NCBI GenBank assembly: GCA_963674945.2 | Contig: CAXXWQ010000003.1 | Span: 1,248,001 to 1,312,000 of the forward strand | DNA length: 64,000 nucleotides | Reading direction: 5' to 3' | From: an uncultured Desulfosarcina sp. | GTDB lineage: Bacteria > Desulfobacterota > Desulfobacteria > Desulfobacterales > Desulfosarcinaceae | In this document: positions 41,193 to 58,313 of the stretch, piece by piece | Position numbering within the stretch: position 1 is the stretch's first letter | How the letters are laid out: every line of letters starts with the position of its first letter | Program-made: the position numbers and the translations under genes | The notes under the pieces: generated by a model | Database searches by the model: none | The model's input: the letters and a program-made list of their open reading frames with translations, nothing else | What the model was told of the DNA's origin: nothing

Positions 41193-42170
41193 ATGTTAAA
41201 CATTCGAAATGTTCTATCCGGTCGATGGCTGCTTTATCTAATGGTTTCCATCATGAGTTGTCCGGCCATGGCGTTTGCAACGGAAGCCATGACAAGTGGG
41301 GCCGCAGCCAAACCCTGGTGGTTTTGGCCCATTATCCTGTTTTTCTTCTGCCTGGTACTCGGCGTTCTGGCGGTCATGGCGGGCGTCGGTGGCGGGGTAT
41401 TGTATGTACCGCTGGTCAGTGGCTTTTTTCCCTTTCACATCGATTTTGTCAGGGGCATCGGACTCATGGTCGCACTGGCCGGCGCACTGGCGGCCGGCCC
41501 GGGATTGTTGCGACGGAACCTGGCCAACCTCCGCCTGGCCCTTCCCGTGGCACTCATCGCATCGGCCTGTTCCATCGCCGGTGCCATGCTCGGCCTCTAC
41601 CTGTCCCAGTTGAATCCCAACATCATTCAGGCCTGCCTGGGTGGCACCATCGTCGGCATCGCCCTTTTGCTTCTGTTTTCCAAAAATACCGAAAAACCGG
41701 TTGTGACGAAACAGGATGCCATCGGATTGGCACTGGGACTCAATGGGGTGTACTGGGATGAAGGATCACGGGAGAGTGTGGAGTGGAAGACCCACCGAAC
41801 CCTTTTGGGCCTTTTCCTGTTCATTCTGATCGGCCTGCTGGCCGGCATGTTCGGTTTGGGGGCCGGATGGGCAAACGTACCGGTACTCAACCTGCTCATG
41901 GGGGCGCCTCTCAAAATCTCCGTGGCCACCAGCAAGTTCCTTCTTTCCATCACCGATACCTCGGCAGCGTGGATCTATCTGAACCGGGGATGCGTGATTC
42001 CGCTGATCGCCGTGCCATCCATCGTCGGTCTCATGCTCGGTTCCATTCTGGGCGTACGGATACTGGCCTTTGCCAAACCCAAGGCGATCCGGTACATGGT
42101 GATCGGTGTACTTTTCTTTGCCGGATTCAAGGCCCTTGACAAAGGGTTGGGACTGGGAATTTTAGGATAA
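41193..42170 (+). CDS. TSUP (TauE/SafE) family transporter
   Basis: AGVGGGVLYVP and AGMFGLGAGWANVP repeats. Confidence 0.9.
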   Translation: MLNIRNVLSGRWLLYLMVSIMSCPAMAFATEAMTSGAAAKPWWFWPIILFFFCLVLGVLAVMAGVGGGVLYVPLVSGFFPFHIDFVRGIGLMVALAGALAAGPGLLRRNLANLRLALPVALIASACSIAGAMLGLYLSQLNPNIIQACLGGTIVGIALLLLFSKNTEKPVVTKQDAIGLALGLNGVYWDEGSRESVEWKTHRTLLGLFLFILIGLLAGMFGLGAGWANVPVLNLLMGAPLKISVATSKFLLSITDTSAAWIYLNRGCVIPLIAVPSIVGLMLGSILGVRILAFAKPKAIRYMVIGVLFFAGFKALDKGLGLGILG

Positions 42171-42194
42171 CGACTTCGATAGGGAGAAATAAAT

Positions 42195-42623
42195 ATGCAA
42201 GGCATGGACAATCCATCACTCAAACCTTCAAAGGAACAGATCATCTACGCCAACTTGTTGTCCATGGGGATGATCGCTGGTATCATTATCATGGTCGCCA
42301 CGTATATCGTATACCTGACGGGGCTCTTGCCGTCCCATGTCGATCTGGCTACGATTTGTGCCAACTGGGGCAAGGGTATCCATGAATATCTGGAAATCAC
42401 CCACTCTCCCACGGGATGGGGCTGGACCGCCCTGCTGGGCAAAGGGGATTTTCTCAACTATATCGGTTTCGTGCTGTTGGCTTTGATGACGATCTTTTGT
42501 TACATAGTTCTGGTCAGGGGATATTCTCGCAAGAAGGACTGGATCTACGCAGTCATCGCCGTATTGGAGATCATCGTCCTGACCGTGGCGGCCTCGGGTT
42601 TGCTGGGCAGCGGCGGCCATTAA
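42195..42623 (+). CDS. DUF1634-like membrane protein (TSUP partner)
   Basis: Three TM helices, GWGW...GDFLN motif, directly after the TSUP gene. Confidence 0.7.
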   Translation: MQGMDNPSLKPSKEQIIYANLLSMGMIAGIIIMVATYIVYLTGLLPSHVDLATICANWGKGIHEYLEITHSPTGWGWTALLGKGDFLNYIGFVLLALMTIFCYIVLVRGYSRKKDWIYAVIAVLEIIVLTVAASGLLGSGGH

Positions 42624-42683
42624 AATGGCGTTCGGGGGAAAAAGCGAATTTATCACTTCATCACAAGTAAAAGGTAGGTAAAA

Positions 42684-43490
42684 ATGACAAAGAAACAGAT
42701 CAACATCCTGCTGGTGGATGACAACCCCAAATTTCTTGCCTCCGCCGCCGAACGTGCCAAATTGAAGGGGTTTACGGTCTTCACGGCCGAAAATGGCAAG
42801 ACCGCCCTTGAAATCGCCGAGGCCAATCCGATCCATATCGCCGTCGTAGATCAGCAGATGCCGGAGATGGAAGGCCTTGTCGTCATCACGAAACTCAAGG
42901 CCATGAAGCCGGACATCCGCACGGTCCTGTTGACCGGCCATGGTGATGACAAACTCAAGGAAGCGACCCAGGCGCTCAACTCCACCTATTTCGACAAGGA
43001 GGAGATGGGAAGCTTCTGGGATTTTCTTTCCAACCTTCCCCTTGGCAGCATCAACATCCTGCTGGTCGACGACAATGAGAAATTCGTCACGGCGCTGGCC
43101 GAGCGCATTCGACTGAAAGGGTATGACCCCTTGATTGCGTTAAACGGACGGGAGGCCCTGGAAATCGCCCGAAGCAACACGATACAGTTGGCCGTCGTGG
43201 ACCACGAGATGCCGGACATGGACGGATTGGTGGTCATCACCAAACTCAAAGAGATCGACCCCTCCTTGCGAACCTTGCTGCTCACGGGCCATGGCGACGA
43301 AAAACTCAGGGAAGCGACCCGGGCGCTCAATTCCCATTATTTCGAAAAAGAGGAGATGAACAAGTTCTGGAGTTTCATCCGCAGAAATCTCCAACGCTTA
43401 GAGAGACACATGGCTGCGGCGGGGATGGCCACAGGCGGGGATATCGAAGATGCGCTGGAGATTGAACGGCAGCATGATAAAAAACGCTGA
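42684..43490 (+). CDS. Tandem double-receiver response regulator
   Basis: Two similar REC domains (INILLVDDN...AVVD..MP.M.GLVVITKLK...LLTGHGD.KL.EAT.ALNS.YF.KEEM). Confidence 0.9.
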   Translation: MTKKQINILLVDDNPKFLASAAERAKLKGFTVFTAENGKTALEIAEANPIHIAVVDQQMPEMEGLVVITKLKAMKPDIRTVLLTGHGDDKLKEATQALNSTYFDKEEMGSFWDFLSNLPLGSINILLVDDNEKFVTALAERIRLKGYDPLIALNGREALEIARSNTIQLAVVDHEMPDMDGLVVITKLKEIDPSLRTLLLTGHGDEKLREATRALNSHYFEKEEMNKFWSFIRRNLQRLERHMAAAGMATGGDIEDALEIERQHDKKR

Positions 43491-43956
43491 TCATGGTTTG
43501 GGGAAGTTTATCATAAACGTGTAATGCCTTATCGTCAGATACGCCGTGATTCGTTGTGTTCAAACCGGATGCCGTGCACCCGGAACCAACCCGAACGATG
43601 AAAGCACGAATGTGCTTTCGGATATCCGGCCGATGGCCGAATATCCGAGCCCCCCCCCCCCTTGCGGGTGGTCGTTGGCACAACTGAATATACGGCATGC
43701 TGATCGCGGGCATGGCCGAAATCCTCCTTATGGGAAATTGAAGTTTGGAAACGCCACCCATCCTTTATTTTATTTCGGTCATGCCCGCGAAAACCAACCG
43801 CGTCAGTTTTTGCGGAACCGATATACATACATTTGATTTCCGCTGTTGCGCATTGACCTCGTAACAAACGTATCATCGTTATAGAAATTTTTCAGGTCTG
43901 AGATTCGAGTACCGGGCAGCTAAGCGAATGCCTTTGACAAGAAAGAAACATTTCTC

Positions 43957-45408
43957 ATGACAAAAACGGCAAAACAGGTTCTTCTGGTCGACGACGAAGA
44001 AAAATTGCTCAAATCCATTGCACAACGAATGACCGTCTTGGGTTTTGTTCCCCATACCGCCACCAGTGGCATGGAAGCCCTTACGATCGCAACCCAGCAC
44101 GCCATCGACGTGGCGATCGTCGACCTGCAGATGCCGGACATGGACGGCCTGGTAACCATCACCAAACTCAAGGAGATCAAACCCGATTTAAAGACGATTC
44201 TGCTCACCGGTCATGGGAACGAAAAGGTCAAACAGGCGACCGAATCCCTCAACACCGTCTATTTTGAAAAGGAGGAAATGGGGACTTTCTGGCAGTTTGT
44301 CCGAGGTCTCAGTACCGATGGCAATGTGGTCGTCATTCGTCCGGCTTCATCGTCGGACAGTCAAAAAGGGCAGCGCGTTGGCGTGGTGCAAAGTGAAATC
44401 GAAATCCATTCCGGTCGCGACTTTTCAGAAACCCATATCCACAAGGATGCGATTCCTGCTTCTGTTCAAACCGCCGGACTCCGCAAGCAACCGAGAATCA
44501 TCGGTGAAACCCCCGCCATGCAACGATTGCGTAACAACCTCGAACGCATGGCGCTCCTGGACTGTCCCGTTACCCTTCGTGGCGAACCGGGCACCGGCAG
44601 GGAACTGGCCGCCAGGGTGATCCATGGTGCGAGTGGACGCGGCCATCTGCGGTTTTTGGCCATCAACTGCTCCGTCTTCAGCAACAAACAAACCGCCAAA
44701 CAGTTTCTCGGCCACGTTGCCGGCAGTCTCTACGAGGCCATCCTGTCCAGAAGCGGCATTTTTGGTGGTGATCCGGTGGGAACGTTGCTTTTGGATCAAA
44801 TCGAGGCGCTGCCCGACGGCTTGCAGGTTCAACTTCTCCACATCCTCGATGCTGCAAACACGAAACAATATGCCAACACCATGAACATCCGGATCATGGT
44901 TTCCACGGCAACGGATCTCATGCAACGGGTCCGGGCAAAATCCTTTCGAGGGGATCTGTACGATCGCCTTTCCATGTTCGAACTGGTGGTTCCCCCTTTG
45001 CGCGAGCGAAAGGATGACATTCCCACCTTGTGCCAGTATTTTTTCGATCATTTCCAAAAGGAATTCGGCAAGGCGGTAGACTCGGTTTCACCGGAGGTAA
45101 TCGACCTTTTGATCTCATACGACTTTCCCGGAAATGTTCGCGAACTGGAGTATATCATGGAGCGGGCCGTCACCATTGCCGATGGCAGCGTCATCGGCCG
45201 GGAGCATTTGCCCCCACGTTTTCAAAAGGAAACGAAGTCCCAACCATCTTCGGATCCCATGCAGTTTGAGCCTCTGGCACAGATGGAAAACCGGTATATC
45301 CTCAAAGTGCTGGACGCCACCAACGGAAACAAATCCAAGACGGCTGAAATTTTAGGGATCAGTCGCGCGGCCTTGTGGCGAAAACTGAAGCAGATGAACG
45401 CAGAGTAA
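43957..45408 (+). CDS. NtrC-like REC-AAA+-Fis regulator with degenerate AAA+ motifs
   Basis: REC; GEPGTGRE; LLDQIE; FRGDLYDRL; FPGNVRELE; NKSKTAEILGISRAALWRKL; no GAFTGA. Confidence 0.88.
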   Translation: MTKTAKQVLLVDDEEKLLKSIAQRMTVLGFVPHTATSGMEALTIATQHAIDVAIVDLQMPDMDGLVTITKLKEIKPDLKTILLTGHGNEKVKQATESLNTVYFEKEEMGTFWQFVRGLSTDGNVVVIRPASSSDSQKGQRVGVVQSEIEIHSGRDFSETHIHKDAIPASVQTAGLRKQPRIIGETPAMQRLRNNLERMALLDCPVTLRGEPGTGRELAARVIHGASGRGHLRFLAINCSVFSNKQTAKQFLGHVAGSLYEAILSRSGIFGGDPVGTLLLDQIEALPDGLQVQLLHILDAANTKQYANTMNIRIMVSTATDLMQRVRAKSFRGDLYDRLSMFELVVPPLRERKDDIPTLCQYFFDHFQKEFGKAVDSVSPEVIDLLISYDFPGNVRELEYIMERAVTIADGSVIGREHLPPRFQKETKSQPSSDPMQFEPLAQMENRYILKVLDATNGNKSKTAEILGISRAALWRKLKQMNAE

Positions 45409-45819
45409 GAAGCCATCCCCAACGACGTTGCCTGGCCGGCACGACGCCCCCCGGACAACATCTTTTCACAAATCCAAAAACAATTTTGTTGCGGCGCCAT
45501 GTAAAGCGTTGATGATTTCGCTGCGCTGGCATACCCGACCGATAATGCCTCGATAAACGACTGGAACCGGGTATTTCCCTGACCGGATGATCGTCCGTCG
45601 TAAATCATTGGAGACTCACCCCAAAGGACCATCTCCCTTCATTCTACTATCTGAAAGTCAGTATTTGAAAGCATCCTGCTTTTTTTATTTGAGACTTGCC
45701 GCACCTCCATTGTTGACAACCCAGTTGTCGGCAAGGTATCCAAGGCTCGTTTGTCCGACCGTCAAGCCGATTGTTGGTTTGCATTTGCACTGCGATAGAA
45801 ACTTCAGGAGGATCGTTAC

Positions 45820-46833
45820 ATGAAAAAGTACACGCTCGTGTTCGCGATGGTTTTGTCTGTTTTGGGTGTCGGTACCGTTTTCCCCCATTCGACTTTGGCC
45901 GATACAGTCAGACTGACGTACAGCAATTTCTTTCCGCCTACCCATATTCAAAGCCAGTTGGCGGAAAGTTGGTGCCAGGAGGTGGAAAAGCGCACCGATG
46001 GCCGCGTCAAAGTACAATATTTTGCCGGCCAGACCCTGACAAAAGCCAAACAGACCTATGACGGCGTCGTGGATGGTATCGCCGATATCGGTTTTTCGGC
46101 CTTTGCCTATACCCGTGGACGCTTCCCCGTGATGGGAGCCGTCGATCTGCCCATGGGCTATCCGGACGGGGTTACCGCAACGGCGGTGGCCAATACGGTA
46201 TTCGAACGGTTTACCCCAAAGGAACTTGCCGATACGCAAATGATGTACATTCATGCCCATGGTCCCGGCCTGATTCACACCCGTGAAAAGGCCGTGCGCA
46301 AGCTGGAGGATTTGAAGGGGCTGAAGATCCGCTCCACCGGCATCAGTGCGCAGATGGTCAAGGCGCTGGGGGGAACACCGGTCCCCATGCCCATGCCCGA
46401 ATCGTATCAGAGCCTGCAAAAGGGCGTGGTCGACGGATGCGCAAATCCCATCGAAACCAACAAGGGCTGGAAGCTGGGAGAGGTGGTCGACTATGTGAGT
46501 CTGGCCTATCCGGTTGCATACACCACTTCGTTTTTTATCGTCATGAACAAGGACAAGTGGAACGCCATCGATGAAAAGGACCAAAAGGTGATCGAGGCCA
46601 TCAATAAACAGTGGGCAGTCAAGCACGGCCAAGCGTGGGACAGTAGCGATAAAGAGGGATTGGACTTTTTTCTCGCCCAAGGCAATAAAACCATCGAAAT
46701 CGATGCCGACGAGGCGGCCCGATGGGAGGCGGCCGTGGCACCCATGATCGAGGAATATACCGCCGATCTGGACGAGAAGGGCCTGGACGGCAAGGGTGTA
46801 ATCGCGACGATACGTGAAACGCTGAAAAAATAG
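45820..46833 (+). CDS. dctP: TRAP transporter substrate-binding protein
   Basis: Signal peptide; EVEKRTDGRV, DLKGLKIR and ESYQSLQKGVVDG; AGGAGG RBS. Confidence 0.93.
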   Translation: MKKYTLVFAMVLSVLGVGTVFPHSTLADTVRLTYSNFFPPTHIQSQLAESWCQEVEKRTDGRVKVQYFAGQTLTKAKQTYDGVVDGIADIGFSAFAYTRGRFPVMGAVDLPMGYPDGVTATAVANTVFERFTPKELADTQMMYIHAHGPGLIHTREKAVRKLEDLKGLKIRSTGISAQMVKALGGTPVPMPMPESYQSLQKGVVDGCANPIETNKGWKLGEVVDYVSLAYPVAYTTSFFIVMNKDKWNAIDEKDQKVIEAINKQWAVKHGQAWDSSDKEGLDFFLAQGNKTIEIDADEAARWEAAVAPMIEEYTADLDEKGLDGKGVIATIRETLKK

Positions 46834-46880
46834 CGCAACGGAAGAAGAGACGGCAACGGTCCGAAAAAATGTAAGGCCCG

Positions 46881-47396
46881 ATGCCGTATTTTTCGGCCAG
46901 GAACTTTCTGATGGCCAGCATATCGAAATTTATCCAATATTTGTCCAATAAATTGAAACAGGGTGGTGCCGTCTGCCTGACGGGAATGAGCCTGCTCACC
47001 TGTGCCGATGTCGTCGGACGCTTTTTTAAACATCCCATCTTCGGATCGGTGGAGCTGGTCACTTTCTTGGGGGTGCTGGCGGCGGCCATGGCCCTGCCGT
47101 TCACCCACGAGACCCGAGGTCACATCGGTGTGGAGTTCTTCGTGGTCCGGATGTCGGGAAAGCGGCGGCAGATCATCGATGTCTGCACCGGCATCATCAG
47201 CTTCGCCCTGTTCGTCGTGGTGGCCTGGCGAATGGTCCTGTACGGGATCAGCCTGAAGCAATCGGGCGAGGTCTCCATGAATCTGGAACTTCCTGAATAT
47301 CTGATCATCTTTGCCGTGGCCGGCTGTTTTCTGGTGCTCTCCGCCGTAATCGCCAAGGGTGTTGTCGAAGGGTTGAGGCGGCTGAGAAACAAATGA
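46881..47396 (+). CDS. dctQ: TRAP transporter small permease
   Basis: ADVVGR, GSVEL and GHIGVE; four TM helices. Start may be 46908. Confidence 0.9.
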   Translation: MPYFSARNFLMASISKFIQYLSNKLKQGGAVCLTGMSLLTCADVVGRFFKHPIFGSVELVTFLGVLAAAMALPFTHETRGHIGVEFFVVRMSGKRRQIIDVCTGIISFALFVVVAWRMVLYGISLKQSGEVSMNLELPEYLIIFAVAGCFLVLSAVIAKGVVEGLRRLRNK

Positions 47397-48706
47397 GTCC
47401 TACAATCATTGGTGTTGTCGGTATTGTGGTGATGGTGCTGGTCTTTTTGACAAGCATGCCGGTCTCTTACGTCATGGCACTGGTCGGGTTCGCCGGATTC
47501 AGCATCGTGGTTTCGGTCCAGGGGGCGCTCAACCTGCTGGCCAAGGACTTCTATTCGGTCTTTTCCTCCTACGGATTGACCACGGTTCCCCTCTTCATCC
47601 TCATGGGACAGCTGGCCTTCAACAGCGGCATCAGCCGTCGTCTCTACAATACGGCCTACGCTTTTCTGGGCGGCACCCGAGGAGGCCTGGCCATTGCCAC
47701 GGTATCGGCCTGTACCGCCTTCGGTTCTGTCTGCGGGTCCAGTCCGGCCACCGCGGCCACCATGGCCACTGTTGGGTTGCCGGAAATGAAACGCTTCGGA
47801 TATGCCGACGAGTTGGCTGCCGGCGCGGTCGCCTCGGGCGGTGGCCTGGGCATGATCATGCCACCCAGCGTCGTATTGATCGTTTACGGCGTGTTGACCG
47901 AACAGTCCATCGGAAAACTGTTCGTGGCCGGTATCGTACCGGCCATATTGATCACGGTTCTCTTTAGCATCGCCATTTTGATCTGGTGTACCATCGCCCC
48001 CGACCAAGGCCCCCGGGGAGAATCTTTTTCGTGGACGACACGGCTCAAATCGATAAAAGACCTGGGCGAAACCGCCGCGGTGTTTGCCCTCGTGATGGGT
48101 GGACTGTTTTTCGGCTGGTTTACCCCCACCGAGGCTGCAGCGGTGGGCGTGTTGGGTGTCGTTGTGGTTTCGACGGCGCGCCGGCAGTTGAGCTGGCAAC
48201 GTTTTGTGGACGCTCTCGGCGATACGCTCAAAACATCGTGCATGGTGATGATGCTCATTGCCGGTGCCGTGGTGTTTGGCAAATTCATGGCCGTGACACG
48301 CATCCCCTTCAATATCGCCGACTGGATCCAGCAGCTCAACCTCCCCCCTCTCATGATTCTCTTTTTGGTGGTAATGGTCTATTTCTTAGGCGGCTGCTTC
48401 ATGGATTCGTTGGCACTGGTGATGCTCACCGTTCCAATCTTCTTCCCGCTCATCACTCAATTGGGCTATGACCCCATCTGGTTCGGCATCGTCATCGTCA
48501 TGGTAACCGAGATGGGGGTGATCACGCCGCCCGTGGGCATCAATGTCTATGTGGTGTACGGAGTGGCCATGGGTATGAAGGACGCCATTGCACTGGAGTC
48601 CATTTTCAAGGGCATCCTGCCTTTCATGCTGGCAATATTATTGGGGATCGCCATCATCGCGTTCTTTCCCCATCTGGTTCTCTTTCTGCCTGACCTGATG
48701 TATTGA
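47393..48706 (+). CDS. dctM: TRAP transporter large permease
   Basis: VPLFILMG, GSSPATAA, IMPPS, TPTEAA and ITPPVG. Confidence 0.95.
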   Translation: MSPTIIGVVGIVVMVLVFLTSMPVSYVMALVGFAGFSIVVSVQGALNLLAKDFYSVFSSYGLTTVPLFILMGQLAFNSGISRRLYNTAYAFLGGTRGGLAIATVSACTAFGSVCGSSPATAATMATVGLPEMKRFGYADELAAGAVASGGGLGMIMPPSVVLIVYGVLTEQSIGKLFVAGIVPAILITVLFSIAILIWCTIAPDQGPRGESFSWTTRLKSIKDLGETAAVFALVMGGLFFGWFTPTEAAAVGVLGVVVVSTARRQLSWQRFVDALGDTLKTSCMVMMLIAGAVVFGKFMAVTRIPFNIADWIQQLNLPPLMILFLVVMVYFLGGCFMDSLALVMLTVPIFFPLITQLGYDPIWFGIVIVMVTEMGVITPPVGINVYVVYGVAMGMKDAIALESIFKGILPFMLAILLGIAIIAFFPHLVLFLPDLMY

Positions 48707-48935
48707 GTTTCCCGATTATAAATGTCATAAAAAGAACGACAAGCGGCACCCCACCTATCTTCTCACAACAAAGCAAATCAAAATAAAATTTCGCTTGATG
48801 AGTTCTCATTGATATGATATGGGTCATATCTCTTATATTGATATTGGTGTTTTCAATATCGGCTCTGGCCAGGATTGAAATATCAAATATCATTTTCAGC
48901 ACAGAATATATAGCTCCTTCAGCGCATTGACGGCA

Positions 48936-49019
48936 ATCTGTTTCTAAGTTCTCTCGATCTGCTGTTAAGTTCTCTCGATCTGTTGTTAAGCTCTTGCGGA
49001 CCGTTGATAAGCTATGACT
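48936..49019. repeat. Four tandem 21-bp direct repeats upstream of the decahaem gene
   Basis: ATCTGTTTCTAAGTTCTCTCG / ATCTGCTGTTAAGTTCTCTCG / ATCTGTTGTTAAGCTCTTGCG / GACCGTTGATAAGCTATGACT. Confidence 0.85.
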
Positions 49020-49116
49020 TCTCTAAAAAAGAAAACTGCATCAATTTATACCTCTTTTTTTCATTCAATCCTTTATATCTTAGATAATTTTCATTCAAAT
49101 CCAAGGAGTGTTTGTT

Positions 49117-50034
49117 ATGGACAGCAGAAATAGTTGTCTATTTTGCAGACCCATTATCCTGATGGCCGGGATCTGGGCGATGTTGTGCCTTCCCGGGCCG
49201 ATAATGGCTTCTGATGGATATATCGGGGCTGAGACCTGCCTTAGGTGCCACGACACGATGGTGGATAGATTCACCCATACTCTTCATGGAAGGGTCTTTT
49301 GCCAAAACACTCCTTATTACGAAAACCGGTGCGAATGTTGCCATGGACCGGGAAAGGCGCATAAAGAAAATCCAAGCAGCGAGGCCATTGTCACCTTTGG
49401 CAAACGCGCCCTTTCAACTGTCAAGGAGAGAAACGGCCGCTGCCTGGACTGCCACGAAACCGGCAGGGAAATCGCCATGTGGCAGGGCGGCCGGCATGCC
49501 AAACAGGACCTCGCCTGCGACAGTTGCCACAGCGCTCACAAGGGATATGACCCGGTGGACCGATCCCCCGAGGCCTGCTACAAATGCCACCTCAATATCA
49601 AAATCGATGCCCAGAAGCAGTCCCGCCATCCCATCCGGGAGGGAAAGGTAAGATGCGGCAACTGCCACAATCCCCACGGCAGCTTGAGCGACCACATGCT
49701 CTCGGCAGACCATGCCAACGATCTGTGCTTCAAATGCCACGCGGAAAAGCGGGGCCCCTTCATGTTCGAACACGCCCCCGTTGAAGAGAACTGCGGGACC
49801 TGTCATACCCCGCACGGCAGTCGGCATAAAAAGCTTTTAATCCAACGGGCTCCGAGCCTCTGCCAGAACTGTCACATGGACGTCCATACCAGCACCAGGG
49901 CCTGGGACCAGACCGCAGGTTTCAAAGGAACCCGGCCCTCCAGCCATTATTATGGCAGAAGCTGCATCACCTGCCATCCCAATGTCCACGGTAGCCAGGC
50001 CCCCACCACCAGCGGCAGGCTGTTCATGAATTAA
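49117..50034 (+). CDS. mtrA: MtrA/DmsE family decahaem c-type cytochrome
   Basis: Ten CxxCH motifs (CLRCH, CECCH, CLDCH, CDSCH, CYKCH, CGNCH, CFKCH, CGTCH, CQNCH, CITCH); CHAEKRGPFMFEHAPVEENC and HGS family motifs; signal peptide. The symbol is family-level. Confidence 0.93.
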   Translation: MDSRNSCLFCRPIILMAGIWAMLCLPGPIMASDGYIGAETCLRCHDTMVDRFTHTLHGRVFCQNTPYYENRCECCHGPGKAHKENPSSEAIVTFGKRALSTVKERNGRCLDCHETGREIAMWQGGRHAKQDLACDSCHSAHKGYDPVDRSPEACYKCHLNIKIDAQKQSRHPIREGKVRCGNCHNPHGSLSDHMLSADHANDLCFKCHAEKRGPFMFEHAPVEENCGTCHTPHGSRHKKLLIQRAPSLCQNCHMDVHTSTRAWDQTAGFKGTRPSSHYYGRSCITCHPNVHGSQAPTTSGRLFMN

Positions 50035-50067
50035 CCCGGGACATTTACGACGCAAGGGGAGAGTATA

Positions 50068-51954
50068 ATGAGACATTTTAGTATGGTTTTTTTGATTCTG
50101 GCCATCTGCTGCTTTGCCTTCCAGTCTGGAGCAGATGAGGGGGAAATCATGTACTCGTGGCAGGTTGAACTGGGTCTGCGGACTGTTGATCAAAACGGTG
50201 ATGAGACAAAGTTCGAGGAATACCGAGATATGGGAGACGGTCTTTGCGGCAGTGCCCGTGTTCAGGCCGACAAGGAGAATCTTTACTATAAACTGGATGC
50301 CGACCGCATCGGACGGGAGGACCAGCAGTATGAATTCATGGGCGGAAAGTATGGGAAGTTCAAAATTCAAATGTTCTACGACGAGATCCCCCACGCCTAT
50401 GCCCGCGATGCCAAGAGCTATTTCAACGGTGTCGGGTCTGCCGCCCTCGTTGATTCAGGAAACCATGCGGACCCCACGCCCTGGCAGGGATTTGACTATG
50501 ACAAGCAGCAAAAAAACGCCGGGTTCAAGGGGGAGTATAATTTTGATACGCCCTACTACCTGGAATTCGGTGCCAACCGGAAGGATTCCGAGGGAATCTA
50601 TCCCCTGGGCGGACCGGCAGGGACCGAACTTCCGGCGCCTGTGGACTGGAATGAACAGAACTGGTTTTTCGGTGGTGGATACCAAAGCAGGACCATAGTG
50701 GCCTCCCTCAGGGCAGATATCAGCTATTTCGACAATAAAAATGAGTGGATGACATGGGACTCACAAACCACCTCCCTTGCCCCGGATTCGGAGTTCTATA
50801 AGTATTCGGGGAAATTTATCTACAGAAATCCCTTTCTTTCATCCCAGTACAGCGTAAGGGCAAGCCATTCAAGGAAAGAGAATTCCTTTGATTTGACACG
50901 TTTTTATTCCAGCACTCTCGGCACCTTTCGCGGGGAAGTGGTCAATACACGGGTGGATGCATCCTGGGACTTTGTGCCGATATCTTACATGGACATGAAG
51001 CTTTTTGCCGGGTACGCGGATACGGACGATGAGTCAGACATGCTGACTGTCAGCACAGTGGCCACAGTTCCCTATGACCATGAAAAAAGGCGTGCTGGAT
51101 TTGATACCACCCTCCGCTTGCCTTCGGCAAATTTCTTGGATATCGGCTACCGATATGTCGATGCATGCCGCTCCTACAGGACAGACAACGACGAAACCTT
51201 AGATAACCTGACCTTTTTCCAGTACCGTAACCGCTCCTTTGACCGGTTTTCATTCAAGGCCAGATATGAGTACTTGAACCGGGAAGGGGATTACAACGGT
51301 ACCGAAGTCGGGACCCGGCGCTATGATGTGGCCAACCAGGTTAAAAACGAGCTGGCCATGGAAGCAGAATACTTCTTTACGGATCAGCTCTTCGGAGCGA
51401 TTGAATATGCCTGGTGGAACCGGGACTACGGGGATACCATCTACGGTCTGAATGGAACCGAACACCACGAGGCTTATGTTTCGTCAGGGTTCAGCGTTTC
51501 GGATTCACTCTCCGCCACCGTCTACATTGGCTATGAGTATGATGAGAACGAAATGGCTACGAATCAAAACTGGTCCCAGGCGGAAGAGTTCGATACAATC
51601 GCCTACGGGGCGGCCTTGGAATTCCCCGTCATGGACGACCGACTCGAATTCATCCTGTCCTGGGACCATTCCAAAGTGGACGGGAGTGCCGACTTCAAAC
51701 CTTCCACTAACAATTATCTCAACCTGATGTATGTAGATGATTGCACCATTCAGCGCCTTGAGGCCAAGAGCATTTACAACCTGAATAGTGACTGGGACAT
51801 TACGATGGGTTACCTGTTTGAGAAGTTTGACCTCCACGATGGCCAGTACGACGGATATGCCTACCTGCCTCCTGGTGCTACCCTGACCGGTGCCTATGCA
51901 GAGCAGGACTACGATGCCCACGTGGTTTACCTGAGCGCTGTATTCCGGTTTTAG
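50068..51954 (+). CDS. mtrB: MtrB/PioB family outer-membrane beta-barrel
   Basis: Signal peptide; KFEEYRD, YDEIPH, LPAPVDW and RRYDVA; alternating beta-strand pattern; C-terminal DYDAHV...FRF; adjacent to the decahaem gene. The symbol is family-level. Confidence 0.88.
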   Translation: MRHFSMVFLILAICCFAFQSGADEGEIMYSWQVELGLRTVDQNGDETKFEEYRDMGDGLCGSARVQADKENLYYKLDADRIGREDQQYEFMGGKYGKFKIQMFYDEIPHAYARDAKSYFNGVGSAALVDSGNHADPTPWQGFDYDKQQKNAGFKGEYNFDTPYYLEFGANRKDSEGIYPLGGPAGTELPAPVDWNEQNWFFGGGYQSRTIVASLRADISYFDNKNEWMTWDSQTTSLAPDSEFYKYSGKFIYRNPFLSSQYSVRASHSRKENSFDLTRFYSSTLGTFRGEVVNTRVDASWDFVPISYMDMKLFAGYADTDDESDMLTVSTVATVPYDHEKRRAGFDTTLRLPSANFLDIGYRYVDACRSYRTDNDETLDNLTFFQYRNRSFDRFSFKARYEYLNREGDYNGTEVGTRRYDVANQVKNELAMEAEYFFTDQLFGAIEYAWWNRDYGDTIYGLNGTEHHEAYVSSGFSVSDSLSATVYIGYEYDENEMATNQNWSQAEEFDTIAYGAALEFPVMDDRLEFILSWDHSKVDGSADFKPSTNNYLNLMYVDDCTIQRLEAKSIYNLNSDWDITMGYLFEKFDLHDGQYDGYAYLPPGATLTGAYAEQDYDAHVVYLSAVFRF

Positions 51955-52006
51955 GCCGTACTTCTTTATATAGTAATAAAAATAAATACCAGAAAGAGGG
52001 TAACGA

Positions 52007-52636
52007 ATGAAACCAAATAAAATTCTCGTTTTTCTATTTTTTTCATTTTTCTTGTTATCGATGTTCGGGTGCGGTTCAGATGAAACCAAAATGGTCTATA
52101 TCGATATGGGATCGGGTGCTGACAGCGACAACGGTGAGACGGATGATACCGATCCGGAACTTGACCCCGGCGAAATGACAGGTGAAGAACTTTACGACAA
52201 CTACTGCGCGGCCTGCCACGGGTCCAAAGAGAACACGAATATTATAGTAAAGACAGCCGAAGAGTTTAAAAAGCATATAGACCTGGGAACAGGCGGCATG
52301 GATACCGATGCGCTTGCGGCGCTTACGCAAGAGCAGCTTGAATCGATTGCCGACTATCTTACAGACGCAACTGAGACAGACGCCTTTGCCGTAACAACCG
52401 ACTATTATGGTAAAGTCTCTTATAATGCCTACTGCAGCACCTGCCATGGCAGCGGTGAATCAACAACTGCGGACCCTGTGAGTGTTGAGGCAATCACAAC
52501 AGCGATAGATTCAGGCATGGGAGGAACGGATATCTCATCTCTGGATGCTCTCACTGATGATGATCTGCGGGAAATAGCCGATTACCTGAACCAACTCATC
52601 GAGTGCGCCGACGGTTCCAACTTTTCTTTCGAATAA
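52007..52636 (+). CDS. Dihaem class I cytochrome c lipoprotein
   Basis: Lipobox MFGC (Cys22), acidic linker, two repeated domains with YCAACHG and YCSTCHG each ending IADYL. Confidence 0.85.
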   Translation: MKPNKILVFLFFSFFLLSMFGCGSDETKMVYIDMGSGADSDNGETDDTDPELDPGEMTGEELYDNYCAACHGSKENTNIIVKTAEEFKKHIDLGTGGMDTDALAALTQEQLESIADYLTDATETDAFAVTTDYYGKVSYNAYCSTCHGSGESTTADPVSVEAITTAIDSGMGGTDISSLDALTDDDLREIADYLNQLIECADGSNFSFE

Positions 52637-52748
52637 TGCAAGATGTGAAAAAGGAAAGAGATATTTCATTGTGAATACCCTTATCGGTACATTGGACAAG
52701 TACATTTTGATTTGAACAAAGCGGTTTCAATCATTAGGAGAATCTACA

Positions 52749-54365
52749 ATGAGCAAAAGAAAAAAAGAAGCGCGTAATACCGATCTTTCCCGCCGTAATT
52801 TCATGAAAAAACTGAGCAGCCTTGCCATTGGAACCGCCGCAGTAGGGATGATTCCAGGTTGCGAAGGCGACACCAATGTTGAAATTCGCCCATACAGCAG
52901 CGCAGACAACGGTGCCATATCGAACGTTCCCGATGCATGGAATGATTCCGCGGATATCATTATCGTTGGATTCGGCGGAGCGGCTGCCATGGCTGCGATT
53001 CACGCCACACAGACAGCTCCCGGAACAACCGTTCTCATTGTCGAAGCGCAGGGGTCCGGCGGTGGATGCACAGCCATGTGCGGTGGCGGTACGCACCTCG
53101 GTGGAGGCACACAACTTCAGACAGACAGCGGATTCAGTGAAACCGCTGAGGAGTTCTACAACTATGCTCTCGCCACAGCAGGAGAAGGTGCGGATTCTGA
53201 TCTGATCAAAGCATATGCGGACAATGCCAAAGACACGTATGACGCTCTGGTATCCATCGGCATCAGCTATGACGGGTATGATTCCGGCTACCTGTTTTTG
53301 CCCCCCGATGGCAAAAGCCTAATCTACGACAACGCCAGACGCCCTGAAATCCTCGAAGCCGCAGGCCTTTCTCAGGCAGTTCCGCATATGCACTTCGGTC
53401 TGGCGCAAGGCGGCGCAGGCCGTGCGGCAACGATGTGGAATGCTCTTGAAACGGCCACACTGGGCATCAGCACTGTAAACGCTTGCTACAACACGGAAGT
53501 GAAACAGCTTATCGTTGACGGCAACGGCAGAGTTGTCGGCGTTGCTGCCGAAAGAGACGGCGAAACACTGTACTTCAAAGGCAGCCAAGCGGTCCTTCTG
53601 GCCAATGGCGGCTTTATCAAAAACGATGAAATGGTCGAACAGTTTATCCCCCATGCCATGGAATGCGTCCGCCTCGGAAACGCCATGGATCTGGGCACAG
53701 GAATTCAGATGGGCCAGGCCATCGGAGCCGACGTTAAACTCATGGACGCCGCCGAAGACTGGGGGCCGGCATGGAGATCCTCCCCCGCTCTCGTGAAAGC
53801 CATTGCCGTGAACAACCACGGGGAAAGGTTCGCCCCGGAAGATCTGGGCGGACCCGAAATGGGAAGATGGATTGCAAGGATCTATCCGTTGTCCTATATC
53901 GTTTTCGACCAGACCATCATGGACGAAATCGACGCGACAATACAACCCTACTTAAATGCTGATTCTGCAGACGCGATCGAGGAACTGGCCGCACTCATTG
54001 ACGTTCCTGCGGCATATCTCAGGAACACCATAGACATGTACAACGCTTCTGCGGCCACAGGCGTGGACGATCAGTTCCGCAAAGATCCGAACATGGTGCA
54101 GGAGATCAATACTTCCCCGTTTTATGCCCTCACACGAAGGCCGACCGATGTTTACACACTTTCATGCGGCGGGCTCCGCATAAACACGAAAACCCAGGTG
54201 CTACGGCCCGATGGAACCGTTATCCCCGGTCTCTACGCCGCAGGAGCCACCACCGCTCATATCAACGCACAGTACTATCTCGCCGGTGGCGGTACGGCAG
54301 GCGCCTTTGTATTCGGGCGCATCGCAGGACTGGAAATGGTGAATGAAGCGTCCTGGGATGTGTAA
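52749..54365 (+). CDS. Tat-exported lipoprotein FAD-dependent oxidoreductase (FAD_binding_2; ketosteroid dehydrogenase / flavocytochrome c flavin-subunit superfamily)
   Basis: SRRNFMK and IPGC (Cys38); VGFGGAA, LANGGF, VNNHGERF, GGLRIN, PGLYAAG and FGRIAG. Confidence 0.9.
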   Translation: MSKRKKEARNTDLSRRNFMKKLSSLAIGTAAVGMIPGCEGDTNVEIRPYSSADNGAISNVPDAWNDSADIIIVGFGGAAAMAAIHATQTAPGTTVLIVEAQGSGGGCTAMCGGGTHLGGGTQLQTDSGFSETAEEFYNYALATAGEGADSDLIKAYADNAKDTYDALVSIGISYDGYDSGYLFLPPDGKSLIYDNARRPEILEAAGLSQAVPHMHFGLAQGGAGRAATMWNALETATLGISTVNACYNTEVKQLIVDGNGRVVGVAAERDGETLYFKGSQAVLLANGGFIKNDEMVEQFIPHAMECVRLGNAMDLGTGIQMGQAIGADVKLMDAAEDWGPAWRSSPALVKAIAVNNHGERFAPEDLGGPEMGRWIARIYPLSYIVFDQTIMDEIDATIQPYLNADSADAIEELAALIDVPAAYLRNTIDMYNASAATGVDDQFRKDPNMVQEINTSPFYALTRRPTDVYTLSCGGLRINTKTQVLRPDGTVIPGLYAAGATTAHINAQYYLAGGGTAGAFVFGRIAGLEMVNEASWDV

Positions 54366-54520
54366 ATTGAGCGATCAGCCCTTGGCTGTTAGCGTTTAGC
54401 AGAATGATATCAAGAAGTTGCTGAAGTTTTTGATTGCAACCCGATGAGTGGTCATTGAAATACTGATAAATGCCCTATATGATGTTACCGGCAAAAAGCG
54501 AACTGCTCAATCGGGTTTCA

Positions 54521-57500
54521 ATGATTACACAAATAAAATCATTCTCTCCGGCGGTCATCCCGTCAGGTCTTTCCATCGTCCATGGCAGTCACATGGAGGA
54601 TCTGCGACAGGTGGCCATTGGCTGGATCGCGCGTCATCCGCTTGCCCCCCTGGAAAACGAATGTTTCGTGGTCCAGAGCAACGGCATGGCCCAGTGGCTG
54701 AAACTGGCCATGGCCGACGATGAAGGATGCGGCATCAGCGCAGCCGTCGATTTTCAACTGCCGGCCCGTTTTCTGTGGAACGCCTACCGGGCCGTTCTCG
54801 GCGACGATGAAATTCCCGACCACTCTCCTTTCGACAAGGATCGATTGATCTGGCGCCTCATGCGTCTGTTGCCCACCTGGATAGGATCGGACTGGTTCAC
54901 CCCTTTGGCCAATTACCTTTCCGATGATCCGGACCATCGCAAGCGTTACCAATTGTCCCGTCATTTGGCCGACCTGTATGATCAATACCAGGTCTACCGC
55001 GCCGACTGGCTCTCAGAATGGATCCATGGATCGGACCGTTTGTACGACGCCGGCGGCATTCCCATTGACCTGCCGCCGGAGCAGCGCTGGCAGGCGGAAT
55101 TGTGGCGGTACATCCATGCCGATGTGCCGGAAAACGCACGGGATACCAGCCGTTTTCGACTCCACCGGCGCTTTCTCGATGAAATCGGCAACTGCAAGAC
55201 GCGCCCGCCCCTTTTGCCACGAAGGGTGATTGTCTTTGGCATCAGCAGCCTTCCCCAACAGGCCATAGCGGCCATCCATGCCCTCTCCCGGCACAGTCAG
55301 ATACTCCTTTTCGTCCACAATCCCTGCCGGCACTTCTGGGCCGATATCGTGGAGGATCGGCAGCTGCTTCGAATCCACCAGACCCGACACCGGCAAAAGG
55401 CGGGCCTTCCACCGTCGCTGAACCTGGAACGACTTCACCAGCACGTCAATCCGCTTTTGGCCGCCTGGGGGAAACAGGGGCGGGACTACATCGGTCTCCT
55501 CTACGGGTACGACCGACCGGAAAAATACCGGGGACAATTCGGACAGATCGACCTGTTCAGCGACTTTATCCGGATTGATGCGCCCCATCTCCTGCTCCAT
55601 CAGGTACAGCAGGCCATCCTGGATCTGACACCCTTGCCAGGATCCGAGGGAAAAAGGGATGTCATTTCCCCCGACGACCGGTCCATCACCTTTCAGGTGG
55701 CCCACAGCCGCCAGCGGGAGGTGGAGATCCTTCGCGATCAGCTTTTGGCCCTGTTCGACGACGACGCAAAGCTGTCGCCCCAGGACGTGATTGTCATGAC
55801 GCCGGATATCGATCTTTACACATCCCACGTGGAGGCGGTTTTCGGTAACGTGGATGTCGAGGATGCAAGGCATATCCCCTATACCATCGCCGATAGTCCC
55901 GAACGTGCCGGTGCCGCCTTGTTCAAGGCCCTGGACAAGCTCTTTCACCTGCCCACACTGCGGCTTTCCGCCGGCGACCTGTTGGACCTTCTCATGATTC
56001 CCGCCGTTCGCCATCGATTCGGCTGGGAGGAAGGGGACCTGCCCCAACTGCACGACTGGATCTTCGGCTCCGGCATCCGATGGGGCCTTTGTGCCGAACA
56101 TCGAAGATCTCTGGGTCTACCGGAAGGCATCGAACAGAATACCTGGTGGTTTGGCGTAAAGCGCATGCTCCTTGGATATGCGGTGGGGAAAGGCGAATGC
56201 TGGCGGGAAATCGTTCCTTTCGATGAAATCGGTGGATTGGATGCGGCCTTGATAGGCCCCCTGGTCCAGATGATCCAGCGGCTGGAGGCCTACCGGCAAA
56301 CCTTGGCCCGCCCTTCCCCACCCGAGGATTGGGCCCGGCGTCTTGGCCGGTTGCTCCACGATTTCTTTCTGCCTGCCGACGCCTTTGAACAACTGGCCGT
56401 AACCAGGATGGAGACAGTTATCGACGAATGGCTTGAGGCATGTGCCGATGCCGATCTGCGCCAGGCAATCCCCCTGGCCGTGGTACGGGAGGCACTCATG
56501 GGAGCCATGGAAAGGACCAGCGTCAGCCAGCGGTTTCTGGCCGGTCGGGTCAATTTCTGCACACTGATGCCCATGCGTGCGATCCCCTTCAAGGTGGTAT
56601 GCCTGTTGGGCATGGACGATGGGGCCTATCCCCGCAGTCGACCACCCATGGATTTCGACCTGATGGCCGGTGCCGGGCGATACCGACCCGGTGATCGCTC
56701 CCGCCGGGAGGATGATCGGTATATTTTCCTCGAGGCCCTGCTCTCTGCGAGAGAAAAGCTTTACATCAGCTATGTGGGCCGCAACATCCGGGACAACAGC
56801 CGTCTGATGCCATCGGTTCTGGTGGGCCAGCTCAAAGACTACCTGGCCGCCGGCTGGCAGGTGGCAAAAGATCGCAACGGCAGGCAGAAAAATCTGTTGG
56901 ACCAATTGACCTGCGAACACCCCCTGCAGCCCTTCAGCCAGACCTATTTCCAACCCGAACGGTGGCCCGAACGATTTACTTACGCACGAAAGTGGCAGGG
57001 GATTCATGGAGGTAAGGCCGATAAGCCTTCGATCCCGGTGCTGAAGCCGGCCATGGTCGAAGGCAAGCTGAAACTCGCCCCGCTGATTCAGTTTCTTAAG
57101 AACCCCGTCAGGGCCTTTTTCAATCAGCGATTGAAGGTGAACCTCTCGCCCGTGGACGTGATCACCGAAGACACGGAGCCCTTCTTTCTCGATGCCCTTG
57201 CACCGTTCGACATGGGAACACAGCTTCTTGCTGCCGGCTTTTCCGCCAGGCCGGAAGCGCGCATCGATACCGTGCACCGGACCGTGGAGATCCTGAAACG
57301 AAGCGGCCGGCTGCCCATCAATGGCTTCGGTAAAATCTGGGCGGACAGCCTGGCCGAACCGGTGCTGCGGATCCTCGACATGCAAGCCGACCTTTCTTCC
57401 AAATGGAAGGGAGAACCCGAAACCGTCGAATTGCGGCTTTTCCTGCCTCTGGGCGGTGGCGAACAAATCGAGCTGGAAGACTGGCTGGATGGCTTGCAGA

Positions 57501-58027: not shown

Positions 58028-58107
58028 TAAAAGAAATCATCAGAGGTGATTTCCCTGGAAAGAGGGGATTGCCATGTTTGGGTCAGCTCATAGGAGACAG
58101 AAACTGC

Positions 58108-58236
58108 AGAAGTCAGAATCCAGGAGTCAGAAGTCAGAATGGCAATGTTGTCGCTTCGCTCTGTCGATTAATTAAGATGGATCGAGCCGAAGGCGAGTAC
58201 CTCATTCTGAATTCTGAATTCTGACTCCTGAATTCT
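58108..58236. repeat. Palindromic intergenic element with AGTCAGA/TCTGAAT heptamer arms (family C)
   Basis: 58115-58140 versus 58211-58236 is inverted with 2 mismatches in 26; central TCGCTTCGCTC. Confidence 0.8.
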
Positions 58237-58313
58237 TATAAAAATCATACGGCAGAACCATTTTTTTAACACGGTGTAGAAAACCAGATTCCCTTGATTG
58301 AATAGAGACCACC

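Follow-up and report, generated by a model that had tools for sequence, protein, structure and literature searches.

A 64-kb stretch of the genome of an uncultured Desulfosarcina sp. (hereafter the window) carries on its + strand, at positions 49117-54365, four co-oriented genes that encode a decahaem cytochrome (A), an outer-membrane beta-barrel (B), a dihaem lipoprotein (C) and an exported flavoenzyme (F). We propose that together they may form a cell-surface flavin reductase for an organic compound outside the cell, a reading that we regard as evenly poised between right and wrong. Its main support is positional: in two kinds of conduit the place taken by C and F is otherwise filled by a DmsAB-type enzyme, and in a third kind by large haem lipoproteins. 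The resemblance of the relay C to an extracellular cytochrome supports the surface model further. This model is favoured because the haem domains of C match extracellular PgcA best (E 2e-15), because the C-F pair also adjoins two other, dissimilar barrel-cytochrome sets, and because the host genome encodes type II secretion genes. More generally, C and F could represent a new class of mobile terminal reductase at the surface of Gram-negative anaerobes, in which a PgcA-type lipoprotein swings electrons from whichever conduit pairs with it to a surface flavoenzyme; this wider proposal is tentative and falls somewhat short of an even chance.

An initial annotation, made from the DNA letters, had described an MtrAB-type conduit in four co-oriented genes that ends neither in MtrC nor in a molybdoenzyme, had placed the dihaem protein as the link between the wire and the flavin adenine dinucleotide (FAD) of F, and had known of no characterised example. 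The gene order stands (gaps of 33, 52 and 112 bp in the list of open reading frames), and Pfam and NCBIfam profile scans place no MtrC/OmcA and no molybdoenzyme within the cluster; a pattern-based, genome-wide list of multihaem proteins holds no large 10-haem lipoprotein. The linking role of C gains support from its likeness to PgcA and from the occurrence of the pair beside other porin-cytochrome sets. No porin-cytochrome conduit ending in a flavoenzyme, and no characterised example of the layout, was found in the literature searched, where coverage of subscription journals is thin; the conduits described there have as their terminal part a multihaem cytochrome, a molybdoenzyme or a rhodanese-like lipoprotein. 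One survey contains none of the terms 'flavoprotein', 'flavocytochrome' and 'FAD', and reports frdABCD beside some mtrCAB clusters (PMC8805035); a term search of a second returned no flavoenzyme-ended conduit (PMC4245776).

A conserved cytochrome-flavoenzyme pair with exchangeable conduits

Eight loci could be compared with their gene context: the window, L001, L002, L003, L004, L081, L171 and L172. The count does not include P0002 (65% identity) and P0003, the homologues nearest to F; among 159 collected loci only L001-L004 and L081 fall in the F group, and the others, with identities of at most 39%, were not counted. C stands directly before F in all eight loci, at a spacing of 35-112 bp. 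The conserved unit is the C-F pair rather than the four-gene set, and the conduit is exchangeable.

Two loci of Desulfuromonadia type, L002 and L171, hold the pair beside two other, mutually dissimilar barrel-cytochrome sets. F of L002 is followed by a barrel and then by 5- and 3-haem lipoproteins. This barrel family is present in 65/141 genomes of the class, and elsewhere, in two clearly read genomes, it precedes small haem lipoproteins and a 10-haem lipoprotein of about 1050 aa (the first two barrel copies of G562, masked by false open reading frames that overlap them, are left out of this count). A broken remnant of the same barrel type lies just after F in L081 (E 6e-9). The order in L171 is F, a lipoprotein of SnoaL-like type with a twin-arginine translocation (Tat) signal, a barrel, a hexahaem cytochrome, tatA and ribBA. 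Genes for flavin supply and Tat export accompany F: the L171 operon ends in tatA, ribBA and a hemerythrin-like gene (L171:1944-4059), and ribA remnants follow F in L002 and L003. The L171-type barrel occurs in 37/68 Deferribacterota genomes. Among 17 copies from six of them the hexahaem cytochrome comes next in every case, and a DmsA-like enzyme with Tat motif and lipobox then follows in 16 (best family dmsA_ynfE, below cut-off), so that in L171 the pair appears to fill the 'DmsAB slot'. The barrels of L002 and L171 show no significant BLAST similarity to each other and have no match among the NCBIfam models; that they are barrels is judged from ESM Atlas neighbours, a weak Porin_4 match and terminal aromatic residues.

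The Deferribacterota cassette deserves mention in its own right. In L247-L260 (genomes G448, G453, G454, G456, G457 and G459) an unclassified barrel of about 480 aa, a hexahaem cytochrome, a Tat-lipobox DmsA-like molybdoenzyme and an iron-sulfur (Fe-S) subunit stand together in 16 of the 17 copies, four of them in tandem in G448. The cassette appears to be an analogue of DmsEFAB in which the barrel is not of MtrB type. No published description of it was found in the literature searched, and the available part of PMC13186404 is silent on DmsA-linked barrels.

Profile searches with F and with the barrel found no second locus that joins mtrAB, C and F. The F profile, for which the large searches scored 3-4 candidates per genome, matched 0/40 relatives, 0/400 genomes of the phylum and 2/400 of the order, both of these matches being weak, signal-less and without cytochromes. 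The barrel profile recovered MtrB relatives in 9/300 genomes of the order and 5/30 of the genus.

Several of these results weigh against a surface reductase. MtrAB adjoins the pair in the window only (1/8), an adjacent conduit is intact or remnant in four of the eight loci and intact in two, and the barrel gene of L171 is split by an IS21 element (istA/istB; L171:4540-8513), with both halves matching an intact homologue. L003 has no barrel beside the pair, three Deferribacterales loci (L001, L004 and L172) have no conduit nearby, and PF11854 finds no match in the two of their genomes tested (G423 and G425). All three Deferribacterota genomes with the pair carry the L171-type barrel elsewhere, at contig ends, which is weak evidence for a partnership because that barrel is so frequent in the phylum. 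Seen from the conduit side, C or F occurs in 0/9 examined neighbourhoods of MtrB relatives (from 14 matching genomes), and neither lies near the two closest MtrAB relatives (G158, and G298, whose contig ends inside mtrB). The layout that was initially annotated is thus conserved in no other genome of the synteny survey, an outcome named beforehand as refuting it. Both modules also occur on their own, which makes the locus a rare join of the two. The C-F pair appears to be a terminal module that is mobile; in the window it has joined an MtrAB pair, and the close relatives of that MtrAB pair lack it.

Two other conduits in related genomes were seen along the way. The close mtrAB pair of G158 (L202:10565-19901; 44-52% identity) has no terminal module, and the genes two away from it are presumably qmoB/qmoC. 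Within the host's order, L204-L209 combine mtrA with a long MtrB of about 920-960 aa that is extended at its N-terminus, and large cytochromes with 1-2 and with 10 haems flank the two; this conduit is of a different type from that of the window.

Such separate occurrence would also suit a C-F pair with no functional link to MtrAB, that is, a self-contained periplasmic flavocytochrome pair fed by the quinone pool, comparable to the periplasmic acrylate reductase reportedly found in Shewanella woodyi, which landed beside mtrAB in a variable region. We think this unlikely and rank it second among the alternatives considered here. It is consistent with the three Deferribacterales loci without an adjacent conduit, with a weak hairpin at 51946-51958 that is at chance level, and with the comparison with 30 congeners, in which the four genes find no DNA match beyond decahaem stretches of about 60 bp, among the matches listed. 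It fits poorly with a B-C gap of only 52 bp. A divergent regulator and spacer lie upstream in 6/7 of the other loci (of GAF-sigma54 type where scanned, LuxR-type in L003), and this arrangement is absent in the window, which also speaks for a link. Three dissimilar conduits beside one rare module would moreover be unlikely by chance, with the qualification that L002 and L171 share operon ancestry.

The conduit and the PgcA-like cytochrome

The coding sequence of A starts at an ATG preceded by AAGGAG and contains ten CxxCH motifs, as initially annotated; it scores 251.9 bits with TIGR03508 (DmsE family; cut-off 192.2), and 6R2Q_A is its sole PDB match at E<=1e-5 (E 1e-63). B aligns with PF11854 (MtrB_PioB) over profile positions 2-635 of 635 at 195.7 bits (cut-off 23) and reaches 143.4 bits with TIGR03509, under the cut-off of 240. 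By these matches it is a divergent MtrB/PioB member, and the family first assigned to it holds. A profile of B matches only 6R2Q_B in the PDB (E 1e-24), an entry that we take to be Shewanella MtrCAB. B ends in Phe and, from its Cys positions, has no N-terminal CxxC. A is predicted to be seated in B and to conduct electrons across the outer membrane.

C (209 aa) has two CxxCH motifs and a lipoprotein-type signal, MFG-C22, of which Gly21 and Cys22 are, together with Asp25, invariant in 8/8 homologues; its description as a dihaem lipoprotein is thereby upheld. The haem domains match PDB entries 8QJG and 8QJ6 best, at E 6.6e-6 with the single sequence and at E 5.6e-12 with the L004 orthologue. The value quoted above belongs to a six-domain profile of the C haems, which matches both entries over the whole length of the profile; its next match, at 5e-7, spans 21 positions. 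Entries 8QJ6 and 8QJG are domains I and II of Geobacter sulfurreducens PgcA, a lipid-anchored cytochrome that is transported across the outer membrane; flexible linkers join its monohaem domains, and domains I and II recharge domain III (PMC11520253). Both domains hold His-Met haems, at -48 and -65 mV (PMC10570954). The GGM methionine of domain 1 of C (M98) aligns with that of PgcA, and domain 2 has GGT in place of GGM, with M171 three residues earlier. Homologues of C bear 1-3 haem motifs behind acidic, proline-threonine (PT)-repeat or Thr-rich stalks, the PT repeats being those of the L172 homologue. Unusual haem motifs, CxCH (CSCH) and Cx4CH, also occur among the homologues (the cytochrome upstream of F in L001/L172; L002/L171). 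The host genome holds no paralogue of C.

C resembles PgcA in its predicted lipid anchor, in small monohaem domains spaced by flexible linkers and in the GGM motif. The two differ in length (209 against about 500 aa) and in that C has two haem domains and is always paired with a flavoenzyme; neither C nor its profile matches 8QK0, the bis-His, mineral-binding domain III of PgcA, whose place would here be taken by F. The comparison also yields two points that tell against a position on the cell surface: the N-terminal secretion domain of PgcA, about 200 aa, is missing from C, which has only some 35 acidic residues before haem 1, and PgcA trapped in the periplasm still works (PMC11520253).

C and F might accordingly face the periplasm, with MtrAB importing electrons from Fe(II), a metal, an electrode or a partner cell and with C, like MtoD/PdsA, feeding F for a periplasmic reduction. 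This is the least improbable of the alternatives, though still unlikely in our estimate. The cluster has no MtrC, so that MtrAB is without a surface partner as in MtoAB/PioAB, the close MtrAB relatives of G158 stand alone, and a lipobox is known to leave the side of the membrane open. The CxxC motif missing from B is of interest in the same sense, Cys42 being essential in Shewanella MtrB (PMC9048795). Against a periplasmic orientation, the slot of the L171-type conduit otherwise holds DmsA-like Tat lipoproteins, whose Shewanella counterpart is extracellular (PMC9048795), C matches extracellular PgcA far better than it does other class I cytochromes, and its homologues carry PT-repeat or Thr-rich stalks.

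The flavoenzyme and the direction of electron flow

F matches PF00890 (157 bits) and combines a twin-arginine motif (SRRNF) with a lipobox (IPG-C38), and both the motif and the lipobox Cys are kept in 13/13 close homologues, in agreement with the initial view of F as a FAD_binding_2 enzyme with both signals. Twelve full-length homologues lie at 44-65% identity, after which identity falls to 36%; one further close member and a few intermediate ones came from a profile search against 1.84 billion representatives. Named members of the group come from Deferribacterales (Geovibrio ferrireducens and Seleniivibrio woodruffii) and from Trichlorobacter lovleyi. In a quick, midpoint-rooted tree the group is separate from signal-less actinobacterial and proteobacterial KstD4-like proteins, and P0144 falls with P0143 on its sister branch. 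The four other matches to F in the host genome have no export signal at the N-terminus.

The nearest solved structure, by sequence (30% identity) as well as fold, is 4AT0, the 3-ketosteroid Δ4-(5α)-dehydrogenase of Rhodococcus jostii (Foldseek TM-scores of 0.78/0.87 for an AlphaFold model of F with a predicted local distance difference test score, pLDDT, of 77). That the closest structure is a dehydrogenase tells against a reductase, and the model itself is unreliable in the active-site loops at 336-339 and 505-514, where pLDDT is below 50. The catalytic set of 4AT0 is, as we understand it, a Ser and two Tyr (S468, Y319 and Y466). Only the carbonyl-binding Tyr has a counterpart in F, Y510; the Ser and the second Tyr align with A512 and G367, and across the homologues of F these positions hold Ser in 2/13 and Tyr in 0/13. 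F likewise lacks the fumarate-reductase His and two Arg, which align with A335, G368 and Y510, and its score with TIGR01813 (196.9) stays under the cut-off of 285. H213, H215, E336, E364, D365 and Y510 are invariant in the group.

Y510 occupies the site of the C-terminal Arg of fumarate reductase, which is replaced by Tyr in three cinnamate-reductase clades, 2-4; CirC needs E311 and Y511, a Glu 200 residues upstream of a Tyr, and characterised respiratory flavin reductases mostly bear signal peptides (Little et al., bioRxiv 2022.12.26.521950). The invariant E336 and Y510 of F may recall this pair, a resemblance drawn from published positions and not an established homology; its force is lessened by the alignment, in which E336 is offset by one residue from the His of fumarate reductase. 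Since F has neither the fumarate-reductase Arg nor the Δ4-dehydrogenase set and keeps the cinnamate-reductase Tyr, reduction of an organic C=C bond appears likeliest. The claim that the direction of electron flow cannot be read from sequence does not hold in full: the comparative evidence leans to reduction. Co-folding of F and C with FAD gave a score of 0.00 (controls not folded), which is evidence in neither direction.

A typical flavocytochrome FAD lies near -150 mV, and with the haems of C near -50 mV electron transfer to the flavin would be uphill, a difficulty for the proposed reductase. Conversely, transfer from FADH2 to a His-Met haem would be downhill, as would suit a surface dehydrogenase that acts on a bulky extracellular ketone of steroid-like or alicyclic type and passes the electrons inwards via C and MtrAB. 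The match to 4AT0 with its aligned Tyr agrees with such an oxidation, as does the frequent partnership of class I cytochromes with dehydrogenases. We nevertheless consider it improbable, and place it last among the alternatives: the Ser and second Tyr of 4AT0, in the roles that we assume for them, are replaced in F, the F group stands apart from KstD4-like proteins, and with potentials near -50 mV the haems would donate electrons poorly to the decahaem wire and to sulfate reduction.

A proposed electron route and its known relatives

For the surface reductase that we prefer, quinol electrons would pass to a complex of NapC or NrfD type encoded elsewhere (the host genome has one NapC-type tetrahaem and five NrfD-type proteins) and on to a periplasmic carrier. 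They would then cross the outer membrane through decahaem A, held in barrel B, and reach the tethered, PgcA-like C, which in a transient contact would reduce the FAD of lipid-anchored F on the outer face. F would finally transfer hydride to an organic compound, most likely one with an activated C=C bond such as an enoate or enone. The four genes would be co-transcribed, and type II secretion would deliver C and F to the surface. Shewanella DmsAB and MtrC reach the surface by this route (PMC9048795; for DmsAB also PMC11302344), and surface lipoproteins of such conduits are often replaced among Desulfuromonadales (PMC6148476). The host genome encodes gspK, L, M, N, C and D, of which GspD (526 against a cut-off of 351), GspC and GspN score above their cut-offs and GspK, L and M below.

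The closest functional parallel is the extracellular dimethyl sulfoxide (DMSO)/iodate reductase DmsEFAB of Shewanella oneidensis, which likewise consists of a decahaem, a barrel, and then an exported terminal enzyme with a relay subunit, in a host with type II secretion genes. The terminal enzyme here is a FAD_binding_2 flavoprotein, whereas there it is the molybdoenzyme DmsA; the Fe-S protein DmsB is replaced as relay by a tethered dihaem lipoprotein of c type, DmsGH is absent, and the host comes from a sulfate-reducer lineage. The window locus would work like DmsEFAB, yet is no member of it. Exported flavin reductases such as Fcc3/FccA, UrdA, CirA-D/CrdD and acrylate reductase share the PF00890 fold and an export signal with F, which has Y510 at the position reported as Tyr in clades 2-4; they are periplasmic or sit on Gram-positive membranes, and none was found tied to an outer-membrane conduit. 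From these enzymes F differs further in its partner cytochrome, which is PgcA-like and not a tetrahaem, and from 4AT0 in its Tat and lipid-anchor signals. A conduit that ends in a non-cytochrome lipoprotein, the rhodanese ExtH, is known from Geobacter ExtHIJKL; the available account of the Ext/Omc conduits reports no flavoenzyme terminal module, in contrast to the window, where the barrel is also of MtrB type (PMC6148476).

Locus and genome context

Signal peptides in the cluster (Table 1) were assigned by pattern only. A direct repeat of 21-bp period, with three copies plus part of a fourth and a TGTTAAG core, lies in the putative promoter region at 48936-49011, about 100 bp before the decahaem start, and is a possible regulator site. 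A sequence scan located no sigma-54 site before A, C or F or within 48707-49116, and promoter and terminator scans of the cluster gave chance level only. Codon usage of the four genes falls inside the genome range (12th-39th percentile) and so offers no sign of recent transfer. A single unbranched contig of 6.18 kb covers 48520-54700 with zero differences in read runs X1 and X2; both runs come from a single sample, from which the assembly itself may have been built.

Table 1. Features of the cluster, in positions of the window
Feature	Position	Strand	Basis
Likely operon promoter region, intergenic, AT-rich (35% GC)	48707..49116	+	function inferred
A: MtrA/DmsE-family decahaem cytochrome c, 305 aa, predicted Sec signal	49117..50034	+	10 CxxCH; TIGR03508
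B: MtrB/PioB-type outer-membrane beta-barrel, 628 aa	50068..51954	+	PF11854 full length
C: predicted lipoprotein (Cys22), acidic linker, two PgcA-like monohaem domains	52007..52636	+	motifs, PDB matches
F: predicted Tat-exported lipoprotein flavoenzyme, FAD_binding_2 superfamily, own branch	52749..54365	+	PF00890, SRRNF, Cys38

The host genome encodes DsrA. The upstream neighbour of the cluster is a tripartite ATP-independent periplasmic (TRAP) transporter, and the open reading frames downstream are presumably recC/recB. On the same strand, 41193-48706 holds a TauE/SafE exporter, response regulators, a sigma-54 activator and the DctPQM TRAP transporter, with no evidence that these genes belong to the cluster. 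An intergenic element of about 150 bp (window ~58100-58260), present in many copies in the host genome and its congeners, resembles a repetitive extragenic palindrome or a miniature inverted-repeat transposable element.

Implications

The system comprises only four genes and F has close homologues in cultured species (Trichlorobacter lovleyi, Geovibrio ferrireducens and Seleniivibrio woodruffii), which makes the proposal directly testable. If it is true, extracellular electron transfer would come to include stereospecific hydride chemistry on extracellular organic molecules, with a bearing on carbon cycling in sediments and on whole-cell biocatalysis driven by electrodes. The tethered haems of PgcA type would gain a partner enzyme and with it an enzyme-feeding role, and sulfate- and metal-reducing lineages could respire organic compounds outside the cell.

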